DNA of 64,000 bases from Polaromonas sp. (GCA_031367325.1 JANLPQ010000056.1:2743-66742), one strand, 5' to 3'; counted from the first letter of the stretch, positions 16,057 to 64,000 are shown. A program made the numbers and translations. Notes: generated from the sequence alone by a model not told the origin.

Positions 16057-16965
16057 CAGAGCTTTGTTATTTGCAAAGTTGCTAGATAGAAAATCAACCA
16101 GCACCCGCACACGCGGTGCCAAGCCTGCCCGGTGTGGGTAAAACATAGCCATGCTGGCGTCGCCGCGCTGGTGCTGGCGCGGCAGTACCTCCACCAAATC
16201 GCCCCGTTGCAGCGCCAAAAATGTATGGTGCCGCGCCATGCGCGCAATGCCCATATGCAGCAGCGCAGCGTCCAAAATCACCTCAGGGTCAGAAATCAGC
16301 AGTTTGGGTTGCACTTGCAGCGCCATCACATGGCCTTTGTCTTTAAACAGCCATGGTGTAACGAGTCCTGTGAGAAATTTCACCTGCAGAACATCGTGCC
16401 CTGCGAGATCTCGGTAGTGCTGCGGGGTGCCCCGCGCCTTCAAATACTGGGGGGTAGCCACCAGTACGGTGGTTAAATCGCAAATCTTGCGTGCCACCAT
16501 GCCCTCGGGCGGTTGCGAGCCGCCGCGTATGCCCACATCAAATCCTTCGCGCACCAAGTCTACTTTTTGATCGTTCAGATTAAGCTCTAAGCGCACATCA
16601 GCATACTGCGCATAAAACGCCGGTAGCAATGGCAGTACATAGCGCCTGCCAAAGCCCACCGAGCAATTGACCCGCACCAAGCCCTGGGGTGCCAGGCCTT
16701 GCGTGGCTTGCACCGAAGCGGCCTCCAGCGTGATCAACCCCTGGCGCGTTTGCGTGATAAACGCTTTGCCCTCTTCAGTGAGCGACAGCTGGCGCGTGGT
16801 GCGGTTAAACAGCCGCACCTGCAGCAATGCCTCGAGAGCAGCTACGTTTTTGCTCACCGCTGCGGGTGTCAGGTTAAGCACCTTGGCCGCCGCGGTAAAG
16901 CTGCCACTGTCAGCCGCTTGCACCGCGCTGATCAAACCGGGAAGAGTGGTTTGTAGTTGTTTCAT
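16048..16965 (-). CDS. LysR family transcriptional regulator
   Basis: 305 aa with N-terminal HTH FTAAAKVLNLTPAAVSKNVAALE and a LysR substrate-binding region. Divergent from the 17085 gene. Confidence 0.92.
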   Translation of the reverse strand: MKQLQTTLPGLISAVQAADSGSFTAAAKVLNLTPAAVSKNVAALEALLQVRLFNRTTRQLSLTEEGKAFITQTRQGLITLEAASVQATQGLAPQGLVRVNCSVGFGRRYVLPLLPAFYAQYADVRLELNLNDQKVDLVREGFDVGIRGGSQPPEGMVARKICDLTTVLVATPQYLKARGTPQHYRDLAGHDVLQVKFLTGLVTPWLFKDKGHVMALQVQPKLLISDPEVILDAALLHMGIARMARHHTFLALQRGDLVEVLPRQHQRGDASMAMFYPHRAGLAPRVRVLVDFLSSNFANNKALHA

Positions 16966-18865: not shown

Positions 18866-20827
18866 ATGACTACAGAACAAGTACTTCACCCCACCTCCAT
18901 ATCTGCAGACAGCGCTGCCGCAGAACCTCCTATTTCTTATGTGCAAGACAACGGTGCCACCGATGACACTGCGAGCACCAGCGCAGGCCTGGCTCCGGCC
19001 GCCCTGTCATTGCTAGGCGCAGCCTTGTTGGCTGCTTGCGGCGGAGGCGGTGGTGGTGGGGAAGCAGATAGTGTTGACAATGGCGATTTGCCTTCTGCTC
19101 CCGGCTTTAACAACTATCCCACTGCCAATAAAGATGAAGAGGCTGCACGGTTTTTGCAGCAAGCGCAGTTTTCTTCGACTATTGCAGATATGTCAGGTGC
19201 CCGCAGCGGCAGTTTTGCAGCTTGGCTGCGCAAAGAATTTGACAAACCGATTGCACAAACCGCGTGGGATTGGATGGAGTCACGCGGTTATGGCGCAGAC
19301 GCGAATACCGCCAAATATGTTTACAACACTACGATTGGTGAATTCGCAGTTTGGAGCCAGTTGTTCAGCGCGCCGGACGCCATGCGCAAACGTATTGCAT
19401 TAGCACTGTCAGAGTTTTTTGTGGTGTCGTTCCAGTCGATGGAGATTGACTGGCGCGGCTACACCATTGCGGCGTACTGGGATATTCTGAACAAATATGC
19501 GTTTGAAAATTTTCGCAGTTTGCTCGAAGAAGTCACTCTCAGCCCTGCAATGGGTCACTACCTCAACACCCGAGGCAACCAAAAAGAAGACGCTGCTAAA
19601 GGACGCTTGCCCGACGAAAATTATGCACGTGAGGTGATGCAGTTATTTACCATTGGCTTATACGAGCTTAATTTGGACGGGACAGTGAAAACCGCCAACG
19701 GTAAAGACGTTGAGTCCTATACAGCTGACGATGTAAGTCAACTAGCCCGAGTGTTCACTGGCTACGACTTCAACCCTGCGTACCGCAACAAACAACCGTA
19801 TATCGAAAATGGCGCTAGAAAATATGATGTTTACAGCCGCGAATATGCGCGCCAACGCATGACGCTGGATGTTACCAAGCACTCTAACTTAGCGGTCAAA
19901 TGTACGAACTACATCAATATTCCTGCAGGTACGCCTGGTCCAGAAGCGCTTAGACTGGCATTAGATGGGTTGTTCAATAACCCCAACGCTGGCCCCTTCT
20001 TTGCCAAACAGATGATCCAGCGTTTGGTAACCAGCAATCCAAGCCCAGCTTATGTAGCGCGCGTAGCCAGCGCTTTTAATAAAGACGCTAGCGGCCAGCG
20101 CGGCAATCTTAGAGCCGTGTGGAGGGCCATATTATTGGACGATGAAGCGCGCGGGCCGCAGGGTTTGACCGATCCAGGTTTTGGCAAAGTGCGCGAACCC
20201 ATCGTGCGTTTTGTGCAGTGGGGGCGTACATTCAACGCCCGTTCTATCGAAAATTCTTGGAAGATTGGTGACCTTAGCAATACGCAGTACAGTTTAGGGC
20301 AAAGTCCCTTCCAGTCCCCCTCGGTGTTTAACTTTTTCCGGCCCGGTTATGTGCCTGCGGGCACCGATCTGGCTAAGCGCGGCGCGACTGCGCCAGAGAT
20401 GCAAATTGTCAACGAGACCACGGTTGGCACCTATATCAACTTCATGTATGACAAAGTTCGTAATGGCATACGAACTAACTCACCTAAACTGCCTGATCCA
20501 AGCTATGTAGGTGGTGCTGACATAGTTGACATCGTGCCAGATTACAAAACGGAACTCAATTTAATCACCAACACCGATCTGACAGACGCTCAGACGGCAC
20601 CTGTTGCTAAAGCGTTAGCAGATCGCTTAAATTTAACTTTGTGTGCGGGGCAAATGAGCGCTGCAACTTTGACTGCCCTGCAAACGGGTTTGCAAGGTGC
20701 ACTAAAGAGCTACAAAAAAATCACAATGAATGTGAAAAGTCCCGATAAAGAAGACTACAAGCTCGATTGGGTTGCCTCTGGCGTTCTTCTTGCGATGGCC
20801 AGTCCCGACTACCTCGTACAAAAATAA
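18866..20827 (+). CDS. DUF1800 domain-containing protein
   Basis: 653 aa. The block DENYAREVMQLFTIGLYEL...YTADDVSQLARVFTGY matches the DUF1800 signature as I recall it. Lipobox-like LLAAC-GGGG near aa 57, so the true start may be downstream. Confidence 0.75.
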   Translation: MTTEQVLHPTSISADSAAAEPPISYVQDNGATDDTASTSAGLAPAALSLLGAALLAACGGGGGGGEADSVDNGDLPSAPGFNNYPTANKDEEAARFLQQAQFSSTIADMSGARSGSFAAWLRKEFDKPIAQTAWDWMESRGYGADANTAKYVYNTTIGEFAVWSQLFSAPDAMRKRIALALSEFFVVSFQSMEIDWRGYTIAAYWDILNKYAFENFRSLLEEVTLSPAMGHYLNTRGNQKEDAAKGRLPDENYAREVMQLFTIGLYELNLDGTVKTANGKDVESYTADDVSQLARVFTGYDFNPAYRNKQPYIENGARKYDVYSREYARQRMTLDVTKHSNLAVKCTNYINIPAGTPGPEALRLALDGLFNNPNAGPFFAKQMIQRLVTSNPSPAYVARVASAFNKDASGQRGNLRAVWRAILLDDEARGPQGLTDPGFGKVREPIVRFVQWGRTFNARSIENSWKIGDLSNTQYSLGQSPFQSPSVFNFFRPGYVPAGTDLAKRGATAPEMQIVNETTVGTYINFMYDKVRNGIRTNSPKLPDPSYVGGADIVDIVPDYKTELNLITNTDLTDAQTAPVAKALADRLNLTLCAGQMSAATLTALQTGLQGALKSYKKITMNVKSPDKEDYKLDWVASGVLLAMASPDYLVQK

Positions 20828-53528: not shown

Positions 53529-54332
53529 ATGCAACACGCCATTTGTATTGCCGGGGCCAGTGGCCGCATGGGCCGCATGCTGATCGAAGCCGTGCACCAA
53601 GCCGACGACTGCACCGTATCGGGCGCGCTGGATGTGCCGGGCAGCGCTGGCATTGGGCTAGATGCCAGTGGATTTTTAGGCCACGCCAGCGGCATCACCA
53701 TCACGTCGAACACCGCCTTTGGGTTGAAAGGCAGCCAAGCGCTGATCGACTTTACCCGCCCCGAGGGCACCATGGCGCACCTAGCACTGTGCCGCGAGAT
53801 GGGTGTCAACATGGTGATTGGCACCACGGGTTTTAGCGACGCGCAAAAGGCCGAGATTCAATCGGCCAGCCAAGACATAGCCATCATGCTAGCGCCCAAT
53901 ATGAGCGTGGGCGTTAACGTCACGCTCAAGCTGCTGGAAATGGCCGCCAAAGCCATGAGCGAGGGTTACGACATTGAAGTGATCGAGGCGCACCACCGCC
54001 ACAAGGTAGACGCCCCCAGCGGCACCGCGCTCAAAATGGGCGAGGTGATGGCCCACGCCATGGGCCGCGATTTAAAGCAATGCGCCGTCTACACCCGCCA
54101 GGGCCACACCGGCGAGCGTGACCCGTCTAGCATTGGCTTTGCCACCATTCGCGGTGGCGACATTGTGGGCGACCACACCGTGCTGTTTGCAGGTATTGGC
54201 GAGCGCATTGAAATTACCCACAAATCGTCCAGCCGCAGCACCTACGCGCAGGGCGCGTTGCGTGCCGTGCGCTTTGTAGCGGGGCGCAAGAGCGGGTTGT
54301 TTGACATGTTTGACGTGCTCAATCTACGCTAA
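53529..54332 (+). CDS. dapB: 4-hydroxy-tetrahydrodipicolinate reductase
   Basis: 267 aa with [24 protein letters not shown] and [13 protein letters not shown]. Confidence 0.96.
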
Positions 54333-54379
54333 TGTTCTGCGCTAATTTATTGGCTTAATTTTTACCACTATTTCACACC

Positions 54380-55042
54380 ATGAGTGCATTCCAATTTATC
54401 TCGCAAGGCGACGCTATCAGTAAATTTGTTGCGCTGCTGCTGCTGGCTATGTCGGTGGCCAGCTGGGTGGTGATTGTGTGGAAAGCCTGGATGATCAAAC
54501 GTGCCGTGCCCGATGTGGCGCGCAGCATTGCCGCGTTTTGGCAAGCGCCTGATTTAGCGCAAGCGCAAGCCACGGTAGCCAGCCTAGACCGCGAAGGCTT
54601 GGTGCTACCGCTCATAGAAGCCAGCCATGCGCGCGCCGCCGGCACGCTGGCCACTGTAGGCGACAAAGCCCAGCAGCTCACCCGCGTGCTGCGCGATGCC
54701 TTGCACGCTGTGCTGCTGAAGTTGCAATTTGGCCAAGTGCTGCTGGCCACCGTCGGCTCCACCGCGCCGTTCGTGGGGCTGCTGGGTACAGTGTGGGGCA
54801 TCTACCATGCGCTTATTGGCATCAGCGGCGCAGGCCAATTGACCATTGACAAAGTAGCTGGCCCCGTAGGCGAGGCGCTGATTATGACGGCCGCAGGCTT
54901 GGCCGTGGCCATCCCTGCCGTGCTAGCGTACAACCTGTTTGGTCGCTATGTAGGCCGTATCGAAGCTGACCTAGAAGGCTTTGCACGAGACCTGCGTGAA
55001 CTGATCGCGCACCACGCCCCCAAGTCCTCCGTATCGGAATAA
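54380..55042 (+). CDS. exbB: MotA/TolQ/ExbB proton channel family protein
   Basis: 220 aa with three TM helices and the block TAPFVGLLGTVWGI. Followed by an ExbD-type gene. No tolA/tolB/pal or tonB is adjacent, so the exbB symbol is tentative. Confidence 0.75.
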   Translation: MSAFQFISQGDAISKFVALLLLAMSVASWVVIVWKAWMIKRAVPDVARSIAAFWQAPDLAQAQATVASLDREGLVLPLIEASHARAAGTLATVGDKAQQLTRVLRDALHAVLLKLQFGQVLLATVGSTAPFVGLLGTVWGIYHALIGISGAGQLTIDKVAGPVGEALIMTAAGLAVAIPAVLAYNLFGRYVGRIEADLEGFARDLRELIAHHAPKSSVSE

Positions 55043-55045
55043 AAG

Positions 55046-55483
55046 ATGTCATTTGGCCGCCTAGAACGCACAAAAAGCGCCCAGCCCATGAGCGAGATCA
55101 ACGTCACGCCGCTGGTGGATGTGATGATGGTGCTGCTGGTGATTTTTATCATCACCGCACCACTATTGGCCAGCAGCATCAAGCTAGATTTGCCCAAGAC
55201 CGAAGCCGCCAAACCCAACGACGCCCCCAAGTTTGTTACCGTAGTGGTCGACAAAGCCGCGCAAGTTTTTTTAAACGACAAACCCATTGAACTGCCCGCG
55301 CTGGCTGAATCATTGCAGCAGTCCGCCAAAGCCAACCCCGACACCGAAGTGCAACTGCGCGCCGATGCTACTGTGCCCTATGGCAAAGTGGTCGAGGTGA
55401 TGGGCATTGCACAAAAAGCAGGCTTAAATCGTATAGGTTTTGTCGCTGACAAGCCTGCCACTGGAACACCCAGCACCCCCTGA
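55046..55483 (+). CDS. exbD: ExbD/TolR family biopolymer transporter
   Basis: 145 aa. INVTPLVDVMMVLLVIFII and the periplasmic domain are typical of ExbD/TolR. Confidence 0.8.
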   Translation: MSFGRLERTKSAQPMSEINVTPLVDVMMVLLVIFIITAPLLASSIKLDLPKTEAAKPNDAPKFVTVVVDKAAQVFLNDKPIELPALAESLQQSAKANPDTEVQLRADATVPYGKVVEVMGIAQKAGLNRIGFVADKPATGTPSTP

Positions 55484-55571: not shown

Positions 55572-55814
55572 ATGCAAGTAGCTAAGTGGGGCAACAGTTT
55601 GGGTGTTCGCCTGCCCATGGCACTAGTGCAAAAGCTGGGCATCTCCGAGGGCGACGAGTTGGTGGTGCTGCCCGCTGCGCGCCGCGCAGGAGCGCCTGTG
55701 GTGCAGATCAGCCGCCAGCCTAGCAAACTAGAGCGCTTGCACGCCATGCGCCGCTACCGCGCTGCTATGCCTGCCGGTTTTAAATTTGACCGTGAAGAAG
55801 CCAACGCGCGCTGA
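55572..55814 (+). CDS. vapB: AbrB/MazE/SpoVT family antitoxin (VapB-type)
   Basis: 80 aa. MQVAKWGNSLGVRLP is the SpoVT-AbrB swapped-hairpin signature. The stop overlaps the vapC ATG (TGATG). Confidence 0.85.
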   Translation: MQVAKWGNSLGVRLPMALVQKLGISEGDELVVLPAARRAGAPVVQISRQPSKLERLHAMRRYRAAMPAGFKFDREEANAR

Positions 55815-56227
55815 TGAAAATATTTCTTGACACCAATGTGCTGATTTATTGGCTTGACCTAAGCCCGCGCGCGGATGTGGTTGAACAGCTGTTAGCGCAA
55901 GATGCCGTCATTAGCGTGCAAGTACTCAACGAGTTTGCCAACGTGCTGCGCAAAAAGCGCAACATGCCCTTTGCAGCCATTAATGAACTGGTAGAGACTT
56001 TATTGCAAACCTGCGATGTGGGTGACCTGACCGTGCGTGTGCACCAAGGCGCGCTAGAGCTGGCGGCGCGCTATAAACTCAGCATTTACGATGCTAATAT
56101 TTTGGCTGCTGCTGCAGAAATGGGTTGCGCTACCGTGTATTCAGAAGACATGCAACACGGCATGAGCATCAAGCACCCTAAATCAATTGGCAGTGGCTCA
56201 CTGTCTATTAAAAACCCGTTTATTTAA
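55814..56227 (+). CDS. vapC: Type II toxin VapC (PIN domain ribonuclease)
   Basis: 137 aa with FLDTNVLIY (first acidic residue), a conserved E in VLNEFANV and D in IYDANILAAA. Confidence 0.85.
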   Translation: MKIFLDTNVLIYWLDLSPRADVVEQLLAQDAVISVQVLNEFANVLRKKRNMPFAAINELVETLLQTCDVGDLTVRVHQGALELAARYKLSIYDANILAAAAEMGCATVYSEDMQHGMSIKHPKSIGSGSLSIKNPFI

Positions 56228-56608
56228 TTTTTCAGTTTTAGTTTTTAAGCTAAATCTATTTCCGATGTCGATAGCGCGGCCTGCGCTGCAATCACCGGAC
56301 TTGCAACTGATGCAATCTTGAGATTGATTTTGGCAGCCTGTGCTTGATCCGAGCCGGTGGCTGGTCCGACCATGATGATCTCTACTAGGAGCGTAGAGAC
56401 TATATTCTTTGCTAGTTTGTTTGGAATAAAAATCAAGCGTAGTCCGCACGGCTAAAATTTATGTTTTGGTGTACGACTGTGTCTGGCTATGAGTGGTGCC
56501 AAACCGTCTTTAAAAATAGCTGTCAAGTGGTGTCTGTGCGGCACAGCAATGTAGTTGCAGGTAGCCACTTTGGCCTCTCGTGGCTGTGTAAAGGTAATTC
56601 GTTTGAAT

Positions 56609-56624
56609 CTGACACACTTGACAC
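56609..56624 (+). promoter_or_regulatory. Direct-repeat motif S1 (CTGACACACTTGACAC)
   Basis: 90 nt upstream of the 56699 start codon. Shares the TGACAC-N3-TGACAC arrangement with S2 and S3. Confidence 0.55.
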
Positions 56625-56698
56625 TTTACACCGCACGCAACGTAAGTTGCAATACGTTACAGATAATATTTTCTGCAAAACCCTCTGGAGCAATTAAG

Positions 56699-57298
56699 GT
56701 GAGTAAGTTGAAAATTATTTTTAATGTGGTGTTGGTACTTGCATTGACAGCGTGTGGCGGTGGTGGAAGCGATGTTGACCCAACTTCGTTGGCAGTGTCT
56801 GGCGGTGGTTCAGTTACAGCGCCTGTAAGCCCACCCACCGAAACAACCACTTCATCCACTACTAGCGGCTACACTAAAGCAACGCTTAACGGCGTTTATA
56901 GCCGCTGTCCAATAAAACAAGTTCTCGCCGCTACAAGTGATGCATGGTGGACCTGCATTGCAGGATTGGAGTTTGTTGGTTTGACCGCATTTGGTGGTAA
57001 AGCTTGCTCATTGATTGTGCGCAGCGACGGTGCGTTTGAATACACCAGCAATGGCGTTAAAAGAACAACACCGACAGCTAGTAACAATCTTGCAACGGCA
57101 GCGAGTACATACCAGCACGCAATCATTGGTACCGCTGGATATCACAACTTTCGTGCGTCATCAAACTTTGTTAACCAAGCGCTTATACAGTCAGGCATAA
57201 GCGTGCTGGCAGTAGAGGTTGTATTGAGCCAGGTGCCTGATCTTGTGTCTTTTGAGGTAAGTTATCAGGGAGAATCTTGCAGCTTGAATATTCAATAA
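56699..57298 (+). CDS. Hypothetical lipoprotein
   Basis: ORF from 56555. GTG 56699 is preceded by AAGG and gives VSKLKIIFNVVLVLALTAC-GGGG (lipobox) plus a Thr/Ser/Pro linker. I do not recognise a family. Confidence 0.65.
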   Translation: MSKLKIIFNVVLVLALTACGGGGSDVDPTSLAVSGGGSVTAPVSPPTETTTSSTTSGYTKATLNGVYSRCPIKQVLAATSDAWWTCIAGLEFVGLTAFGGKACSLIVRSDGAFEYTSNGVKRTTPTASNNLATAASTYQHAIIGTAGYHNFRASSNFVNQALIQSGISVLAVEVVLSQVPDLVSFEVSYQGESCSLNIQ

Positions 57299-57516
57299 CC
57301 GCAGGTTAGGAGTCTGGGCGGTAAAAGGATGGTTAATCACCTCAAGCACTCTCAAGCCGTCTCGGTGATGCTTGGTGATTGCAATAGCGTCCGCGTAAGT
57401 GGAAATAGGAGCATTTAATACCCTATCAGAACTTCAAATATGCCTTCACACACCTTTTTTTCTTCTTAAACCATCCTTTTCATAGAATTCTAGATAAAAA
57501 GAAATAAGCTTTAAAT

Positions 57517-57532
57517 TTGACACAATTGACAC
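57517..57532 (+). promoter_or_regulatory. Direct-repeat motif S2 (TTGACACAATTGACAC)
   Basis: 83 nt upstream of ATG 57600. Identical 16-mer to S3. Confidence 0.55.
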
Positions 57533-57599
57533 AGTTGAGAACTATTAAATATAGTTAAGCTTTATAACTAACAAATATTTCTTGACCAAGTCATACTCC

Positions 57600-57959
57600 A
57601 TGAAAACGCTACCCCATTTAATCCTGTTGTCGTCATTTACTGTGCTGGTTGGTTGTGCCACCACCACGACTAAAAACATCTCTTATACAACCACGGCAGA
57701 CCGCGCCTATGAATGCGCACTGGGCGCAGCCAGAGATGGAGGTTTACAAGTGGCAATGTCAGATACCAAAGCCGGTATTTTTTCAGTGATCACTGGTGGT
57801 GGGTTTGCAGGCGGGATGCAAATATCGTTTGCTGTGGATAAGCAGGCAAAAGTTGTAAACGTCATTGCAACTAACCACGGTGCGGGCATGCCTGGCGCTA
57901 GCAACTCCGAGAAGATAGTTGCTGATTTTCAGTCCGCATTTTCTAAACGTTGCAAATAA
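57600..57959 (+). CDS. Hypothetical small lipoprotein
   Basis: ORF from 57582. ATG 57600 gives MKTLPHLILLSSFTVLVGC-ATT (lipobox). I do not recognise a family. Confidence 0.65.
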   Translation: MKTLPHLILLSSFTVLVGCATTTTKNISYTTTADRAYECALGAARDGGLQVAMSDTKAGIFSVITGGGFAGGMQISFAVDKQAKVVNVIATNHGAGMPGASNSEKIVADFQSAFSKRCK

Positions 57960-58087
57960 AAATATTTGATGTGCTTATACATAGTTTTTTAGGACTTTGC
58001 ACGACCGAGAAAGCCAAAGTCTCGAAAGGCAGGGTATTTTTTTAGGCTTTGACTTGCAAACGGCAGCAGGCTGCAATGTTTCCATCA

Positions 58088-59512
58088 TCAACCGCAAGCA
58101 AACCCATCTTTTTGCATATCAATAACAATCTCTTCGTGCCGCGCCATCAGCGCGTCTCGCTCTGCGCGTGCAGCTTGTCTGGGCACGATGCAATGCCGCA
58201 TGTGTAGAAAACTTGCAAGTTGATTTAAGGCAATAATTTCTTGTCGTGGTCCGCCATGGTTGCGCGCCAGTTCAAGTGCCCGTGCATAAAAGGCTTGGTT
58301 GTTAGGGCTGGTTTGCTCGGGCCAAACCAGCGCATCTTGTTCAATCAGGGCGCGCGCCTTGGACGAACTGAGGTAAATGTCGCCCAACATTAAAAAGTCC
58401 CAAGCGCTGTCTTGCGGTAGTTCAAAGCGGTCTACCAATGTGTGTGACAGCTTAAACCATGCGATAGAGGCCGCTAGTCCGTCATACAGACCTTTGCTGT
58501 CTAACCAATACAACGAGTAGGCAAAATTGCAGGCTACAGCCTGGCAGTGGTAATGGTCTTTTGCAAGGCTGGCCCAAAAATAAGCCGCACCAAAAGTTTG
58601 CATTGCCTCATTTACTAAGTGTTGTACTGTTTGAGGTTGCGCATTAGCTTGCAGTTGCCGTTCTATTTGTCGCCTAAAAGCCAGCGCCCGCAAGTTGCAC
58701 CACTCCCACTGCAAATTAATGTTGGGCGCTGTGTCCACCACGGTCCTTAGCTTTTCAAAATCTACGCTCAAAGAGGCTTGCAGCGGCAGTGCGTCAAATG
58801 CTGCACGTGCTGTCAGTAGCCCAGTTTTGCTAGCCACATAGGCCCTCATACGCCAAGGTAGCGCCGCAGAGCGCTTTTGCAGCAGCAACAAAAGCGCATT
58901 TGCCTGCGCATATTGCCCTAAGCGCCGCTGCACACGTGCTAGCCGAATGGCCCACATACACCAGCCTGCATCGCTGAGCCCTAAGGTTTGCAGCTGTGAC
59001 TCTAGCAATTTGATCGCTTCTGGGTATTGGCCCGCTGCCAGCATTACGTCTGCCACAGCCAGCGCGTTGGCTGCATGGCACCAAGCAGTGGGGTCGGTAT
59101 GCTGGGTGAAGTTAGGCTCTGGGTTGGCGGTAGGTGCATGGCATCCGTCTACTTGCCATTCTTCGCTGGGCAATATAACTAAACGCCATGGCCCGGTAGT
59201 TAGTGCCCGCGTTTCGGTCTCAACCCTGCTGGCACCGTTGGGCAACACGACAGCCAGTGCTGCGCGCACTGTTTGCACGATACGGCTAATAGCCGTTCGG
59301 TCAGGTACTGCCTGTACATCGTGCGCAGCCCAAGATGACAAGAAATCAGCCTTGGTGTAAGCCCGGCCTTGCATAGCTGCTGTTATCAGCCCGTCTAAAA
59401 ATAAGGCGGCCTTATGGTGTTTTAGTGGGGCAGTAACACCATTGCTGCTTAATAAATTAGCTTTTAAATGCAAGCTGACGAGAGTAAATGGTACTTTTGA
59501 CACAATTGACAC
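58088..59512 (-). CDS. Putative transcriptional regulator: N-terminal OmpR/CadC-like winged helix plus helical-repeat (TPR-like) region
   Basis: 474 aa. Residues 10-95 follow the trans_reg_C spacing pattern (L-L...G..V.L..K..ALFL..L......YTKADFLSSW.........ISRIVQTVRAAL). The remainder is Ala/Leu-rich helical repeats (QYPEAIKLLESQL, LGQYAQANALL). The domain call is by eye only, and the GTG 59512 start is uncertain. Confidence 0.5.
   Translation of the reverse strand: MSIVSKVPFTLVSLHLKANLLSSNGVTAPLKHHKAALFLDGLITAAMQGRAYTKADFLSSWAAHDVQAVPDRTAISRIVQTVRAALAVVLPNGASRVETETRALTTGPWRLVILPSEEWQVDGCHAPTANPEPNFTQHTDPTAWCHAANALAVADVMLAAGQYPEAIKLLESQLQTLGLSDAGWCMWAIRLARVQRRLGQYAQANALLLLLQKRSAALPWRMRAYVASKTGLLTARAAFDALPLQASLSVDFEKLRTVVDTAPNINLQWEWCNLRALAFRRQIERQLQANAQPQTVQHLVNEAMQTFGAAYFWASLAKDHYHCQAVACNFAYSLYWLDSKGLYDGLAASIAWFKLSHTLVDRFELPQDSAWDFLMLGDIYLSSSKARALIEQDALVWPEQTSPNNQAFYARALELARNHGGPRQEIIALNQLASFLHMRHCIVPRQAARAERDALMARHEEIVIDMQKDGFACG
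59497..59512 (+). promoter_or_regulatory. Direct-repeat motif S3 (TTGACACAATTGACAC)
   Basis: 87 nt upstream of ATG 59584. On the other strand it overlaps the predicted start codon of the regulator gene. Confidence 0.55.
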
Positions 59513-59583
59513 TTTACGACAATCTCGCCTTCGTTTTCAATACGTTACAGAAAAATACTTTTCAATTCATTTAAAGGCGCGCT

Positions 59584-61293
59584 ATGAAAAAATATAAAAG
59601 CTCAATATTGTTGAGCGCTGTTTTGTCAGCATTATTAGTGGGATGTGGTGGAGGTGGCGACCCAGTTGCGCCTACAGGTGGCTCTTCAGAACCTACTGGC
59701 ACATCAGTTACTGACACCACGGGTACTACACCTACGGGCACTACACCCACGGGGACTACACCCGGCGGTTCACCAGGACCAATTCCGCCCACACTCGAAA
59801 CAGTTAACTTAGCAGTTCAATTCTTAGCCGCCTACGATGCACAACGCGCTACAGCTATACCCACATCCGCAGCCAGTTTGTATGCTGCTACTGACAGCTG
59901 TAGCCTCAGCGGAGGTAACACTAAGGCATTGCTAACAGCGGCATTCAATGCTGATGCAGCATTAGTAATCGGTTCCAAACAATTTGATATAGGGTCAGTT
60001 AGAAAGAATATTGAGGTCTTGGCTGAGCGCAACAGCACCAACGCCGATGGCAGTACACGCCGCGAGATCGATATTAAGTACGATGTTTTATATACAGATG
60101 GCTCCGCTGACACTGCAGCAACCACCACATTGATAACCGGTAGCTCTTATGGCAGCTGTGGTGCACCGCAAACTGGTGCAGATGTGCGCTTTTTCGGCAA
60201 CCGCCGCGTAGTTGATGTGTATATGCAAGGGCGTAACCTCAGCACTATCAACTTATACAGACAGAACACGTCTGTGCCAGTAGCCAGTGCACCTGCAGGC
60301 CTGCCTTATCCCACCGCAACATCCACAATATCAGGCGTGCCCACAACTGTGTATTTAGTTCCTGCAGGCAGCCCATCTGTGAACGCACCGGTCACCTATA
60401 GACGCGATGTATTGTTTGGTATCAACGACCCGTCGGGCAAAGCTACCTACCTTGTGGTTACGGGCCCGGGGCCAGCAACCTCAGTGGCTGGCGTAACCAA
60501 GACTTTCAGCGTAAAGATGATTTCTCCTAGGCTGCTGCGCGACGACGCGCTGCTAGCTGGCAAGCGAGGTAACTTTGCTAATTGGAAGGATGATGACAGT
60601 TTTCGCTTTTGCAGTAGTGTCGCTAGCGGGATTTTAAATGCTGAGCTTTCTGATTGCGTAACTAACGGCGGAGCAGGTAATAACTTTGGCTGGAATCGTG
60701 CGTCTACATCACCTAACACTGTAGCCTCGTCTGACGCTGGTTTTGATGCTTATGGCTTTCAGGTAGGCAACTACACCTTCAATATTTACAACGACGACGG
60801 ATGGAAAACGGTAAACGGCCAAGCTGGCAAAACACCCATAGCCACCTACACGGCAAGACTTGAAAAGTTGCCATACTCATTTGCAGACATGGGCGTAACT
60901 TTAAATACAGCCTACGCCATCCCGACCAGCAAGTTTCCACAATTTAGTAATGCTAGTTTATCAACGGCTGATATAGCTGCAAGGTTACAACTCTCTACCG
61001 CTACGACTTTTACCAGCACGTGGACAGCTCCAGTGGTGCCCGGTGCAGATGTTTGGCGTTTAAGCAGCGGAGGTGAGTATTTTGATGGTGCCAAATCTAC
61101 CAATACATTGGGCGCATTTTGGCCTGCACTAAGATTTTTCACACCCGCATACCCCAGCAGTACAGCACTTGCAGGCACCACTACCATTTCAGCTAAACCT
61201 GCAGAAATAAGCGTCAAAAACTACTCTGAATTTTCGTTAACGTATACCAACCGCAACGGCGGAAGAATTCAAAGTGCAGTAGCGTTTAACTAA
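59584..61293 (+). CDS. Hypothetical large lipoprotein
   Basis: 569 aa. MKKYKSSILLSAVLSALLVGC-GGGG lipobox, a TGTTP-repeat linker, then a Thr/Ser/Asn-rich body. I do not recognise a family. Confidence 0.75.
   Translation: MKKYKSSILLSAVLSALLVGCGGGGDPVAPTGGSSEPTGTSVTDTTGTTPTGTTPTGTTPGGSPGPIPPTLETVNLAVQFLAAYDAQRATAIPTSAASLYAATDSCSLSGGNTKALLTAAFNADAALVIGSKQFDIGSVRKNIEVLAERNSTNADGSTRREIDIKYDVLYTDGSADTAATTTLITGSSYGSCGAPQTGADVRFFGNRRVVDVYMQGRNLSTINLYRQNTSVPVASAPAGLPYPTATSTISGVPTTVYLVPAGSPSVNAPVTYRRDVLFGINDPSGKATYLVVTGPGPATSVAGVTKTFSVKMISPRLLRDDALLAGKRGNFANWKDDDSFRFCSSVASGILNAELSDCVTNGGAGNNFGWNRASTSPNTVASSDAGFDAYGFQVGNYTFNIYNDDGWKTVNGQAGKTPIATYTARLEKLPYSFADMGVTLNTAYAIPTSKFPQFSNASLSTADIAARLQLSTATTFTSTWTAPVVPGADVWRLSSGGEYFDGAKSTNTLGAFWPALRFFTPAYPSSTALAGTTTISAKPAEISVKNYSEFSLTYTNRNGGRIQSAVAFN
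59719..59763 (+). repeat. 15 bp tandem repeat x3 encoding TGTTP
   Basis: ACGGGTACTACACCT ACGGGCACTACACCC ACGGGGACTACACCC. The units differ only at third codon positions. Confidence 0.9.
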
Positions 61294-61300
61294 AAATTTG

Positions 61301-61327
61301 CAGGCCAGTATCTAAATTACTGGCCTG
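61301..61327 (+). terminator. Hairpin between the 59584 and 61355 genes
   Basis: Perfect 10 bp stem CAGGCCAGTA / TACTGGCCTG with a 7 nt loop, followed by TAATTTG (weak T-run). Confidence 0.5.
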
Positions 61328-61354
61328 TAATTTGCAAGAAAATTGACCTAGAAA

Positions 61355-62017
61355 ATGAACATACTAAAATTACTGATGGTAGCCGTAGGGCTTGCGCTAG
61401 GTACTTCTCAGTTGCTTGCCCAAACTGCAGAGCGTCCCATTTGGGATATCAAGGACCGGTGGGAATACCAGTTCACTAAAAAAAATGACGGCAACAAAGT
61501 CAGCGAATATTCTCATGAGATCGAAAAACTAGAAGATGGCAAAATCACAGTCCGCAGACAAAACAAAAATGCAGAAGGTGCGTTTACCAGTGGCGGCAGA
61601 GTAATCTACAGTGCTGACATGAACTACGTGTCAGCTTCTGCAACTGAATCCGTTGTTACGCCAGATTCGCGCACACTGCAATGGCCCTTAGAGGTTGGCA
61701 AAAAGTATGCGGTCGAATATGAATGGACCAACGCTAGCAACGCCCAAAAAGGAAACTTTGAATACAAGGCCACAGTTGAAAGCTACGAAGACATCACAGT
61801 GCCGGCTGGCACGTTCAAGGCTTACAAAATAGTGTTCAAAGGTTTTTGGAACCGCCGAGATAGCCAATACAGCGGCAGTGGACGATCAAACCACATCCTG
61901 TGGTATGCGCCTGATGTAAAGCGCTGGGTTAGGTGGACGATAGAAGATCGTACATCTAATGGACAACTCTACAACGATAACGTCGCAGAATTAGTCAAGT
62001 ACAATCCCGCAAAATAA
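61355..62017 (+). CDS. Hypothetical secreted protein (beta-rich)
   Basis: 220 aa with signal peptide MNILKLLMVAVGLALGTSQLLA-QT and alternating beta-strand-like sequence (VPAGTFKAYKIVFKGFW). I do not recognise a family. Confidence 0.7.
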   Translation: MNILKLLMVAVGLALGTSQLLAQTAERPIWDIKDRWEYQFTKKNDGNKVSEYSHEIEKLEDGKITVRRQNKNAEGAFTSGGRVIYSADMNYVSASATESVVTPDSRTLQWPLEVGKKYAVEYEWTNASNAQKGNFEYKATVESYEDITVPAGTFKAYKIVFKGFWNRRDSQYSGSGRSNHILWYAPDVKRWVRWTIEDRTSNGQLYNDNVAELVKYNPAK

Positions 62018-62071: not shown

Positions 62072-63070
62072 CTAACGCATTAAAATTTTTTTGCGCCAAT
62101 GGGTTTGCTTCACAAATTTGTCTTGCAGTAAGGCGTCAGTTATGCGGCCTTGGTTTTTGAGTTGCTCCAGGCGTTGCAGCAGGCTGACAGTGACAGCCTG
62201 GCGCGAAGAAATAATCAGATCTACATTGGTAAAAATTTGCAGCAAATCATCATCAGTCAGCATTAGGGTTGCTACATCGTCGGCAACCAACAATGCATTA
62301 GGCTGTGCAGTGCGCGCCATAGCTACCAGCTCGGGGCTTAGCACAGCAGGTTGGTTGCCATAGGATTTAAAAATCGCAACGCTTAGCATTAAAAACGCAG
62401 GCATGTTGCTATTAAAAGCTTTTGATACATTTGCCAGATGCTGCTGGCTGGCATGGTCTACGGCGGCTTCTTTATGGCCCGCTGGAAACCAGCGTTGATC
62501 GCTCAAATCACTTGCCTGCATGATGCGTGTGCTGCTGCTGTGGCCGGGATAATGCTTCCATGTAGGCACCACACCACCGCTGCGCATGGCACGGGCAAAT
62601 GCACTGGCGTATTGGCCTGCTAGCGCGGGCTCGCTGGCGTAGCCGCGGTGAATGTAAATATCTGCCTCGGGTGTTGCGTCAAGCGCTGGCTGCGTGTCAG
62701 CAACAGGCGCTAAATTAACTGTAACGCATGCAAACCGCAATGCTTTAGCAGCTGACAAAGCAATCGCTTCGAAATTTTCTAGACTTTTTGTTTGCGCTGT
62801 CGCTGGATCTGGCGGTGCGAACTGTGGCCCCTTCAATCTGCGCACAATACCGCCTTCTTGGTCTACCGCTTGCAACTGCTGTGGTTGCAGCTTAGTGGTT
62901 TGGCACGGCGCATCTGGCGTACGTGCTAGTTCTGCACCGTAGTACACGCGGCCAGCCCATGGCCCGGCCCCTTCGCTGATGAAAAACTGGGCAAAGTCCG
63001 GGGTTTGTGCCCAGCTGTGGTTGGCCGTAAACAAGGCAAAGCAAATGCAAGCAATAGTTGAAAAATTCAT
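62072..63070 (-). CDS. Glycoside hydrolase family 3 N-terminal-domain protein (NagZ-like, with signal peptide)
   Basis: 332 aa with signal peptide ...FTANHSWA-QT and GH3 blocks DQEGGIVRRL, KHYPGHS and LLVADDVATLML. Confidence 0.65.
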   Translation of the reverse strand: MNFSTIACICFALFTANHSWAQTPDFAQFFISEGAGPWAGRVYYGAELARTPDAPCQTTKLQPQQLQAVDQEGGIVRRLKGPQFAPPDPATAQTKSLENFEAIALSAAKALRFACVTVNLAPVADTQPALDATPEADIYIHRGYASEPALAGQYASAFARAMRSGGVVPTWKHYPGHSSSTRIMQASDLSDQRWFPAGHKEAAVDHASQQHLANVSKAFNSNMPAFLMLSVAIFKSYGNQPAVLSPELVAMARTAQPNALLVADDVATLMLTDDDLLQIFTNVDLIISSRQAVTVSLLQRLEQLKNQGRITDALLQDKFVKQTHWRKKILMR

Positions 63071-63159: not shown

Positions 63160-64000
63160 TCAAAACGCGGTATCAGCCCATATTTTCATATTGCGTCTAG
63201 GGCCTTGCCACACGTTGTCTGCGCCTGTCAATGACCTGACGTATCGCTTATCCGTTACGTTTTCAATAACAGCCCCCCAACTTATGCCGCCGTTATTGGC
63301 TGTTGATGTTATGCCCAGACCTAAAATGCCGTAGCCTGGTGACCGAAAGCTGGCCTTGTCGTCGCCGGGGCGGCTGGTGGCTGCCTGAAGGCGTGCCCAG
63401 GTGGTAAGCCCTGCGCTAATAGGCCAGCTGGCTTTGATGCTGCCATAACCGTCGGGGCTACCTGTTAAAAAACCGCCTTGTGTGCTGCTCACGCGGTCTT
63501 GCACGCGTGCATGTAATCGGGTTAATGCGGCCTGCCAATGCACACTGGCCCATTGAAAGTCAGCTCTGGCTTCAAAGCCCTTGGACCGGTTGCTACCTAT
63601 TAGCACCAGCGCATCCGGGTCCTTAGGGTCTTTGGCGGGCAGGTTAGATTGTTGCAAATCAAACAAAGCTAGCGAAAAACTTTGCTTGTCTTTTGTATAA
63701 AGCCATCCTAACTCGTACTGCGAGCTAACGCTTGGTGGCAAAAACGCGCCGCCAGACAGCTTGCCACGGTTAGGCAGAAAAGACTCTGCGCGACTGGACC
63801 ACACGCGTTGGGTGTCGCTGAGCTGATAACCTAAACCCACTGATGTGCTGGCGTGGCCCGCGTCGGCTGCCGGGGCGGGCGCTAGGCTTGGGCTAGTACT
63901 GCTGGCTAGCAGGTAGTTACTGCGGCGTAGGCCTAAGCGCAGTTCCCAGCCACCTAGTCGCGCAGTATCAGCAAGAGCGATACCGCGTTCACGGTAATGC
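63160..64000 (-). CDS. TonB-dependent receptor (partial; C-terminal part, continues beyond the window)
   Basis: The frame stays open from 63160 to the window edge; I checked that no stop triplet occurs in 63841-64000. Beta-barrel-type sequence ending in the terminal aromatic ...KIWADTAF. Confidence 0.8.
   Translation of the reverse strand, partial: HYRERGIALADTARLGGWELRLGLRRSNYLLASSTSPSLAPAPAADAGHASTSVGLGYQLSDTQRVWSSRAESFLPNRGKLSGGAFLPPSVSSQYELGWLYTKDKQSFSLALFDLQQSNLPAKDPKDPDALVLIGSNRSKGFEARADFQWASVHWQAALTRLHARVQDRVSSTQGGFLTGSPDGYGSIKASWPISAGLTTWARLQAATSRPGDDKASFRSPGYGILGLGITSTANNGGISWGAVIENVTDKRYVRSLTGADNVWQGPRRNMKIWADTAF

Follow-up and report, generated by a model that had tools for sequence, protein, structure and literature searches.

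The 64,000-nt stretch of Polaromonas sp. DNA analysed here (GCA_031367325.1, JANLPQ010000056.1:2743-66742; hereafter the window, with positions counted from its first letter) contains, between 56,609 and 62,017, a group of genes for exported proteins arranged around a minus-strand gene for a protein of 474 amino acids (aa), which we call the regulator in anticipation of the function proposed below. The exported proteins are three predicted lipoproteins, lipo1 to lipo3, and a 220-aa secreted protein (Table 1). Judged from the translations, lipo1-3 have signal peptides ending in a lipobox of the pattern [LVI][ASTVI][GAS]C (LTAC, LVGC and LVGC), and the open reading frames (ORFs) also agree with the type-I signal LLA-QT that a preliminary description of this DNA had read in the secreted protein along with the three lipoboxes.

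Upstream of each lipoprotein gene lies a copy of a short tandem repeat with a period of 9 bp. The motif TGACACNNNTGACAC (TGACAC-N3-TGACAC) has three plus-strand matches, at 56610, 57518 and 59498 (sites S1, S2 and S3), and no other in the 64 kb, with 0.02 matches expected from shuffles and three or more matches found in 0 of 100 shuffles. The heptamer TTGACAC occurs 15 times in total against 8.9 expected and is not enriched outside the three sites; looser matches elsewhere in the window fall only within ORFs or coding sequence (e.g., at 18955 and 20518), and an independent repeat search returned the same 20-nt family (D1) at the three sites. The preliminary description, which had placed a 16-mer at 57517 and 59497, a variant of it at 56609 and none elsewhere, was therefore accurate in this respect, as it was in the distances to the lipoprotein start codons, which came out the same on re-measurement (Table 1); counted from the 15-mer, they are 89, 82 and 86 nt for S1, S2 and S3. 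A second block, TT(G/T)CAATACGTTACAGA(T/A)AA (D2), is common to S1 and S3, at 56647 and 59535, with an identical 37-nt offset from the repeat, and at S2 a third, degenerate copy of the hexamer (TGAGAA) may come next.

Site S3 occupies the divergent control region between the regulator and lipo3 and, as had been pointed out earlier, overlaps the predicted start of the 474-aa ORF: it covers the GTG codons at both 59512 and 59503, and its reverse complement, GTG TCA ATT GTG TCA, reads M S I V S, the first codons of that ORF. The GTG at 59503 is probably the genuine start, leaving the mRNA with little or no leader, since it aligns with the start of the L008-type relatives described below and since the predicted transcription start site (TSS) lies inside the repeat, about 7 nt before this codon.

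Table 1. Coordinates of features in and around the regulator locus
Feature	Position	Strand	Remarks
Variable segment with S1-lipo1 and S2-lipo2	56253..58083	.	1.83 kb, absent from L001 (246 bp instead)
Decayed remnant of a regulator 5' end	56470..56608	-	left of S1
S1 repeat	56609..56624	+	CTGACACACTTGACAC; 16-mer start 90 nt 5' of lipo1
lipo1	56699-57298	+	199 aa; ...VLALTAC followed by GGGGS; accessory cargo
S2 repeat	57517..57532	+	TTGACACAATTGACAC; 16-mer start 83 nt 5' of lipo2
Near-consensus sigma-70 promoter of lipo2	57526..57555	+	TTGACA-N18-TATAGT, 11/12
lipo2	57600-57959	+	119 aa; ...TVLVGC followed by ATTT; accessory cargo
Regulator gene	58088..59512	-	474 aa from GTG 59512; 471 aa from GTG 59503
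S3 repeat	59497..59512	+	TTGACACAATTGACAC; putative operator, divergent regulator/lipo3 control region; 16-mer start 87 nt 5' of lipo3
Putative sigma-70 promoter of regulator	59511..59540	-	TTGAAA-N18-TAAAGT, consensus scan
lipo3	59584-61293	+	569 aa; ...ALLVGC followed by GGGGD, then Pro/Thr-rich linker
Secreted protein	61355-62017	+	220 aa; ...SQLLA followed by QT
Exported GH3 N-terminal-domain (NagZ-like) protein	62072..63070	-	3' of receptor; neighbour only in window and L001
TonB-dependent receptor, C-terminal part	63160..64000	-	about 670 aa in full, cut by window end

Conservation of the repeat and its neighbours with the regulator

We compared the window with 14 distinct related loci, in which the regulator is from 94% down to 34% identical to that of the window (Table 2). 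All 14 have TGACAC-N3-TGACAC, or a version of it with one or two mismatches, beside the regulator start, and in all of them it points in the same direction, to a divergently transcribed gene for an exported protein, with the repeat beginning 82-112 nt before the start codon of that gene at 11 of the 15 sites. Both hexamers and the 3-nt spacing are kept even at 34-44% protein identity, where the other intergenic DNA has diverged, and the variants cTGACAC and gTGACAC that do occur break the TTGACA consensus of a -35 element but keep TGACAC. Its conservation is not a coding effect, since four loci, L007, L013, L016 and L020, have the repeat 6-118 nt 5' of the regulator ORF. No repeat was found upstream of lipo3 homologues without an adjacent regulator (L014, L017, L018 and L019). 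L003 also has a second repeat, CGACACAATTGACAC at 16784, 8.8 kb from the first; its left flank is that of S1 in the window, and 3' of it are a further lipoprotein gene and lipo2 in decayed form. The presence of the repeat at all 14 regulator loci, its absence from regulator-less lipo3 homologues and the second copy in L003 together constitute strong comparative evidence that it is the cognate site of the regulator family. Indeed, with its fixed orientation, its occurrence with every homologue down to 34% identity and its absence where there is no regulator, the repeat behaves as the operator for which it had been taken in the preliminary description.

Table 2. The repeat beside the regulator gene in related loci
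Locus	Regulator identity to window	Repeat
L001	94%	TGACACAACTGACAC
L002/L003	75%/74%	TGACACAAGTGACAC
L004	63%	AGACACAACTGACAC
L005	60%	TGACACAACTGACAC, two copies
L022/L023	59%/61%	TGACACAGGTGACAC
L007	53%	TGACACAATTGACAC and TGACACCCATGACAC
L020	44%	TGACACCGTTGACAC
L008-L010	40%	TGACACTTTTGTAAC
L013	40%	TGACACAATTGACAC
L021	39%	TAACACGTTTGACACAAATGACAC, three repeats
L016	34%	AGACACAAGTGACAC
L006/L011/L012	34%	TGACACATTTGACAT

Two further blocks are conserved next to the repeat, TTTAC after it and TTTCAA about 22 nt further on. The -10 hexamer of the putative regulator promoter abuts the repeat, and both promoter hexamers recur in unchanged position in L001, L004, L005 (both copies) and L008 as well as at the second repeat of L003; L006 and L020 have approximate versions of them. 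In view of this positional conservation on the regulator strand, we infer that the two blocks represent the -10 and -35 elements of the regulator rather than parts of the operator. On the opposite strand, the consensus scan found no suitably spaced -10 element (16-19 nt 3' of either repeat) at S1, at S3 or at most related sites, which fits activator-dependent promoters with the repeat centred at about -50 to -60.

The cluster as first delimited missed one partner outside its boundaries, the TonB-dependent receptor encoded from 63160 to the end of the window. The fragment present in the window ends in ...WADTAF, with an aromatic residue at the C-terminus, and is 95% identical to the receptor of L001, and orthologues accompany the regulator in L003, L013, L016, L022 and L023 as well; at 44-95% identity, they amount to six distinct contexts, covering most loci with enough flanking sequence. 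In L022 and L023 the receptor gene lies only 33 and 41 nt, respectively, 3' of the regulator on the same strand, and in L013 it follows a lipo3 homologue. The orthologues match Pfam Plug and TonB_dep_Rec_b-barrel and align over their full length with TIGR01783, where their 81-134 bits fall short of the subfamily cut-off (223.5), and may be described as siderophore-receptor-like. They (about 670 aa) have no STN or other signalling extension, the signal peptide leading straight into the plug, and no sigma or anti-sigma genes were found in the receptor-bearing loci examined. The association of regulator and receptor is frequent, not universal.

Other elements were seen near receptor genes. L001 has, at about 2420-2450 and some 20 nt before the receptor start codon, a perfect 12+12 palindrome, GTATATTGTTTC-GA-GAAACAATATAC, which is distinct from the TGACAC repeat and could be the operator of a different, perhaps metal-responsive, repressor. 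In L016, positions 1230-1345, between genes for a Y1-transposase (IS200/RAYT-like) and the receptor, consist of tandem CCAATTAACA(C) 10-mers and a duplicated block of about 35 nt, probably elements of the repetitive extragenic palindrome (REP) type.

Predicted fold and proposed function of the regulator

The 474-aa protein matches no Pfam or NCBIfam family, and Pfam TPR_12/14/7 reach only sub-threshold scores at aa 148-213. A word-indexed search of 5.8 billion proteins yielded 29 relatives, all of them unnamed or hypothetical and none with a Pfam domain, and an exhaustive profile search of 1.84 billion representatives placed the family at 175 clusters at 50% identity. It is a small family of conserved length, found mostly in Polaromonas metagenome-assembled genomes (MAGs): the genomes of 185,579 species contained six regulator loci, five in Polaromonas MAGs and one in an unclassified proteobacterium, and a metagenome scan added only two, both L006-like.

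An AlphaFold2 model built with 22 homologues (predicted local distance difference test score, pLDDT, of 86; 85 for the N-domain predicted alone) divides the protein into a predicted winged helix at residues ~10-122 and an all-helical TPR-like solenoid of ~330 residues at ~141-468, with residues 1-6 unstructured (pLDDT <50). The TPR assignment of the C-domain is solid: Foldseek with the whole model returns the TPRs of LGN/Pins, Rap, NprR and OGT at probability 1.0, and the full family profile finds consensus TPR proteins among PDB sequences at E=7.6e-5 to 1.6e-3. The N-domain consists of strands E10-15, E20-23 and E26-29, helix H35-47 (a1), a short strand at E52, helices H54-64 (a2) and H72-89 (a3) and the hairpin E109-111/E117-122, and this predicted topology, b-b-b, a1, (b), a2, a3, b-hairpin, follows the order of OmpR/ToxR-type winged helices. 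Its top PDB match is DNA-bound ToxR (8b4d_B; TM-scores 0.52/0.62 over 105 columns), with other winged helices next. The assignment of the N-domain to this type is supported by the predicted topology and by the best structural match. In the close subfamily, 39-75% identical to the window protein, the invariant N-terminal residues (D71, R72, R77, R96, R102, T105 and G107-P108-W109) sit in helix a3 and the wing of the model, in keeping with the near-invariance of the repeat; in the wider family alignment, G107 and W109 alone stay invariant. No receiver domain or transmembrane segment is present, so that the architecture read earlier from the sequence, a winged helix followed by TPR-like repeats with neither of these, is borne out at the level of the predicted fold, although not by sequence profiles.

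We consider it fairly probable that the 474-aa protein binds the repeat and regulates the neighbouring envelope genes as well as itself. The regulator would then represent an undescribed family of one-component transcription factors located in the cytoplasm, in which the N-terminal OmpR/ToxR-like winged helix would bind TGACAC-N3-TGACAC and the C-terminal TPR solenoid would receive a signal, be it a ligand or a partner protein. Binding over its own -10, TSS and start codon would block the regulator promoter; such negative autoregulation, suggested at the outset from the overlap of S3 with the regulator start, is plausible in that the repeat covers all three predicted elements. From the same site, ~82-112 nt 5' of the divergent start codon, the protein would also control the gene for the exported protein, and extra copies of the site would place other lipoprotein genes under its control. 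At S1 and S3, both without a recognisable sigma-70 promoter, it would probably activate from about -50 to -60, and at S2, where the repeat coincides with the -35 hexamer, it might repress. The likeliest theme of such a regulon would be TonB-dependent uptake of some substrate, since an orthologous receptor is linked to the regulator in several relatives, and the lipoproteins and the 220-aa protein, which is DUF3108-like, could serve as accessory envelope components.

Several observations weigh against this interpretation. All Foldseek E-values for the N-domain are weak, the best, that of ToxR, being 0.49; Pfam detects Trans_reg_C (PF00486) neither in the window protein nor in 69 family members, neither the N-domain profile nor the full profile finds an OmpR-family chain among PDB sequences, and hhalign against a small alignment of OmpR, PhoB and response regulators gives a probability of 0.1. 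Direct repeats in sites of the OmpR, PhoB and SARP type are typically 10-11 bp apart, and the period of the conserved tandem repeat is 9 bp. TTGACA also happens to be the consensus of the sigma-70 -35 element, and the second repeat of S2 is paired with a good -10. As for the receptor, none was found near the regulator in L006, L007 and L008 despite long flanks, and the receptor genes of L001, L003 and L016 showed no TGACAC repeat in their upstream regions.

Some of these points would be accommodated if the repeat were an operator bound by some other transcription factor, with its gene elsewhere, and the 474-aa protein a TPR scaffold or adaptor with an N-domain that does not bind DNA; the N-domain has no sequence match to any DNA-binding family, its structural match to ToxR is weak and OmpR-type proteins do not usually have sites with a 9-bp period. 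We nevertheless regard this as unlikely, as the repeat is found only where the regulator gene occurs, over 34-94% identity and in varied genomic backgrounds, and is missing from lipo3 homologues that have no regulator, while the predicted topology of the N-domain is of the OmpR/ToxR type, with DNA-bound ToxR as its best PDB match, and helix a3 and the wing are its most conserved parts in the close subfamily. The repeat might also be nothing but promoter architecture, a doubled sigma-70 -35 or a -35 combined with the -10 and start of the regulator, copied along with duplications and having no dedicated binder. Here the resemblance to the -35 consensus, the pairing of the second S2 repeat with TATAGT at 18 nt (11/12), the duplicated nature of the S1 control region and the flanking TTTAC/TTTCAA conservation, best explained as -10 and -35 of the regulator, speak in its favour, and the preliminary description had itself named a duplicated -35 as an objection. 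The objection applies to the second repeat of S2, but S1, S3 and most related loci have no -10 at 16-19 nt 3' of the repeats; besides, the hexamers and their spacing survive where protein identity has fallen to 34-44% and the surroundings have diverged, cTGACAC and gTGACAC are tolerated although they break the -35 consensus, and the orientation with respect to the regulator is fixed, all of which makes an explanation by promoter elements alone quite unlikely.

Conservation of the repeat through coding constraint on the regulator N-terminus (MSIVS), with S1 and S2 as functionless relics of duplication, is very improbable. It is true that S3 encodes the first five codons, that several homologues begin with MSIVS or VS, and that a regulator remnant adjoins S1 and a partial duplicate exists in L005; but in four loci the repeat lies outside the ORF, S2 has no adjoining regulator remnant, and strong constraint at the protein level is not to be expected on first residues that are unstructured in the model. 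There is, finally, hardly any likelihood that the sequence forms a structured RNA shared by the lipoprotein mRNAs in their 5' leaders, as its common position upstream of three genes and the second block shared by S1 and S3 could intimate: it has no Rfam match at E<=1, folding z-scores are ~0 for the S1 and S3 leaders, the fold at S2 is unrelated, and the element is probably located upstream of the transcription start.

Cargo genes and turnover of the locus

The gene divergent from the regulator nearly always codes for a secreted protein or for a lipoprotein in which the lipobox Cys is followed by a run rich in Gly; in the related loci too, the divergent neighbours have lipoboxes, most of them followed by GGG(G). 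Its identity varies: it is of the lipo3 type in the window, L001, L013, L016 and L020, an unrelated protein of 961/976 aa in L003 and L008, and other lipoproteins in L007, L021 and L022. In L006 (1829-7775), the most distant locus, the divergent genes code for a 256-aa secreted protein, a 341-aa lipoprotein and proteins of 410 and 994 aa, which, judged by eye, are caspase-like and tubulin/FtsZ-like (GGTGG motif), respectively. We also noted several large cargo proteins whose C-terminal domain is Lcl_C (DUF1566), with PKD domains present in some of them, in L003 (13118-16057), L007 (2393-5926) and L021 (3-2279), a hint that part of the variable cargo is adhesin-like.

The lipo3 family, known from Comamonadaceae and other Burkholderiales, comprises at least 224 members, mostly without a regulator, and has no Pfam relative (36 homologues searched) and no PDB relative in phmmer and profile searches. 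In comparison with L001, the Pro/Thr-rich linker of lipo3 in the window (TGTTPTGTTPTGTTPGGSPGPIPP..., 59659-59831) is a 42-residue insertion, and outside the linker the two are ~80% identical, with neighbouring proteins at 94-98%. The 220-aa secreted protein scores 21.4 bits against the DUF3108-like profile and its L003 homologue 20.1 bits, both below the cut-off of 27, and its family alignment has no match among PDB sequences; members of DUF3108/DUF3108_like are YmcC-fold outer-membrane proteins (PMC4364669). Homologues of it, at 30-96% identity, are found beside the regulator in five distinct contexts (window, L001, L003, L020 and L021), and the 199-aa and 351-aa neighbours in L022 and L007 show no significant relation to this family. 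A hairpin with 16-nt arms lies at 61295-61333, between lipo3 and the 220-aa gene, and may act as a partial terminator or mRNA-processing site within their transcription unit.

Such turnover does not agree with the view, put forward in the preliminary description, of a small self-contained regulon, nor are its genes co-conserved as a set: lipo1 and lipo2 are absent from L001, the divergent lipoprotein is replaced in other loci, and lipo3 mostly occurs without the regulator. L001 is the closest relative of the window, with 94-98% protein identity in the flanking dapB, exbB, exbD, vapBC, GH3 and receptor genes, and it is the segment with S1-lipo1 and S2-lipo2 that sets the two apart (Table 1). 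The regulator remnant to the left of S1 was recognised from a weak tblastn match of regulator aa 17-42 at 56577-56500 and from DNA alignment with the S3 region and with a duplicate in L005, and on these alignments S1-lipo1 is demonstrably a duplicated control region. The L005 duplicate (373-648) comprises the first 92 codons of the regulator, at 59% identity, together with an exact repeat of its own, and is flanked on the other side by the start of an exported-protein gene; it looks like a fresh example of the type of duplication that produced S1. Given the remnant and the L005 duplicate, it seems that the regulon acquires members when the divergent control region is duplicated in its entirety, and the envelope regulon would grow and shrink by such duplication and by cargo replacement.

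The regulator module adjoins exbD-exbB-dapB in the window (53529-55483), L001 and L008 (9454-12471), where bamE and fur follow. The L008 dapB, exbB and exbD products are 81-90% identical to those of the window, but its regulator only 40%, which indicates that the module was replaced at a fixed chromosomal site. A pair coding for VapB (MazE-type antitoxin) and VapC (PIN) adjoins the variable segment at 55572-56227, and PIN/MazE or PemK pairs are also present on the flanks of the module in L003, L008, L009, L022 and L023; these pairs suggest a site that is island-like and prone to recombination. The presence of VapBC on the flank and the variability of the cargo led us to consider a defence system, for which PADLOC gave no match with any of seven proteins, the regulator among them.

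Relation to known regulators

In architecture and logic, the regulator comes closest to the SARPs (AfsR, DnrI, ActII-ORF4 and EmbR), which combine an OmpR-type winged helix with a helical TPR-like domain and bind direct repeats, 11 or 22 bp apart and with the 3' repeat 8 bp from the -10, at promoters of gene clusters adjacent to their own genes (PMC10936776). Like them, it is cytoplasmic and independent of a receiver, with an N-terminal winged helix (here a predicted one) directly followed by a helical domain, and its proposed targets are situated in the cluster. It differs in that none of the 69 regulator-family members matches a BTAD or Trans_reg_C profile, the C-domain matching generic TPRs instead, in that EmbR and AfsR are absent from the best 50 Foldseek matches, and in the 9-bp period, with no -10-like hexamer 8 bp 3' of the repeat at S1 or S3; its hosts are Betaproteobacteria, and its cargo consists of exported proteins, whereas that of SARPs is antibiotic biosynthesis. 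Salmonella HilA has an N-terminal DNA-binding domain of the OmpR/ToxR family, a TPR-like C-terminal region and no receiver or transmembrane segment, binds a direct-repeat box and activates adjacent envelope/secretion operons. As generally described, it resembles the regulator in domain layout and in the direct-repeat box, but its DNA-binding domain is recognisable by sequence, and that of the regulator family is not.

ToxR, CadC and TcpP, the group to which the best structural match of the N-domain belongs, bind direct repeats and regulate envelope proteins, but they are membrane-anchored with a periplasmic sensor, unlike the regulator with its cytoplasmic TPR domain and no transmembrane segment. 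The RRNPP proteins (PlcR, NprR, Rap and Rgg) share with it the one-component fusion, predicted in our case, of a TPR signal domain to a DNA-binding domain, but theirs is an XRE-type helix-turn-helix rather than a predicted winged helix, and they belong to Firmicutes and respond to imported peptides; no gene for a signalling peptide is evident at the regulator locus, where no systematic search for one was made. Regulators of TonB-dependent receptors include the AraC-type PchR, YbtA and AlcR and extracytoplasmic function (ECF) signalling of the FecIR type, which employs an STN extension and a sigma/anti-sigma pair. A dedicated regulator beside a TonB-dependent receptor and accessory envelope proteins is common to these systems and to the locus described here, but the protein families are entirely different, and the receptor here has no signalling extension and no ECF sigma/anti-sigma genes nearby.

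A more far-reaching possibility, which we hold to be doubtful, is that regulator and operator form a portable cassette that recruits genes for exported proteins through copies of its divergent control region, with regulator stubs left over as at S1 and in L005, and that the TPR domain is a cytoplasmic sensor of whatever substrate the co-conserved receptor brings in. If true, TonB-dependent receptors would be coupled to their substrates in a fourth, hitherto undescribed manner, beside ECF signalling, AraC-type and two-component regulators, and the winged helix, too diverged for any profile, would be reading a repeat with a 9-bp period.

Overall, the 474-aa protein and its relatives make up a new family of putative regulators and not a new kind of system, and no concept is overturned, given that fusions of a winged helix to TPRs that read direct repeats are already known from SARPs and HilA. 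The combination of an unannotated protein family with a sharply defined, conserved DNA site makes it a candidate transcription-factor family that is directly open to testing. It would tie three uncharacterised envelope groups, the lipo3 family, the DUF3108-like secreted protein and a distinct clade of TonB-dependent receptors, to one control circuit, the cargo of which can be seen to be gained and lost between close relatives among cold freshwater Polaromonas.

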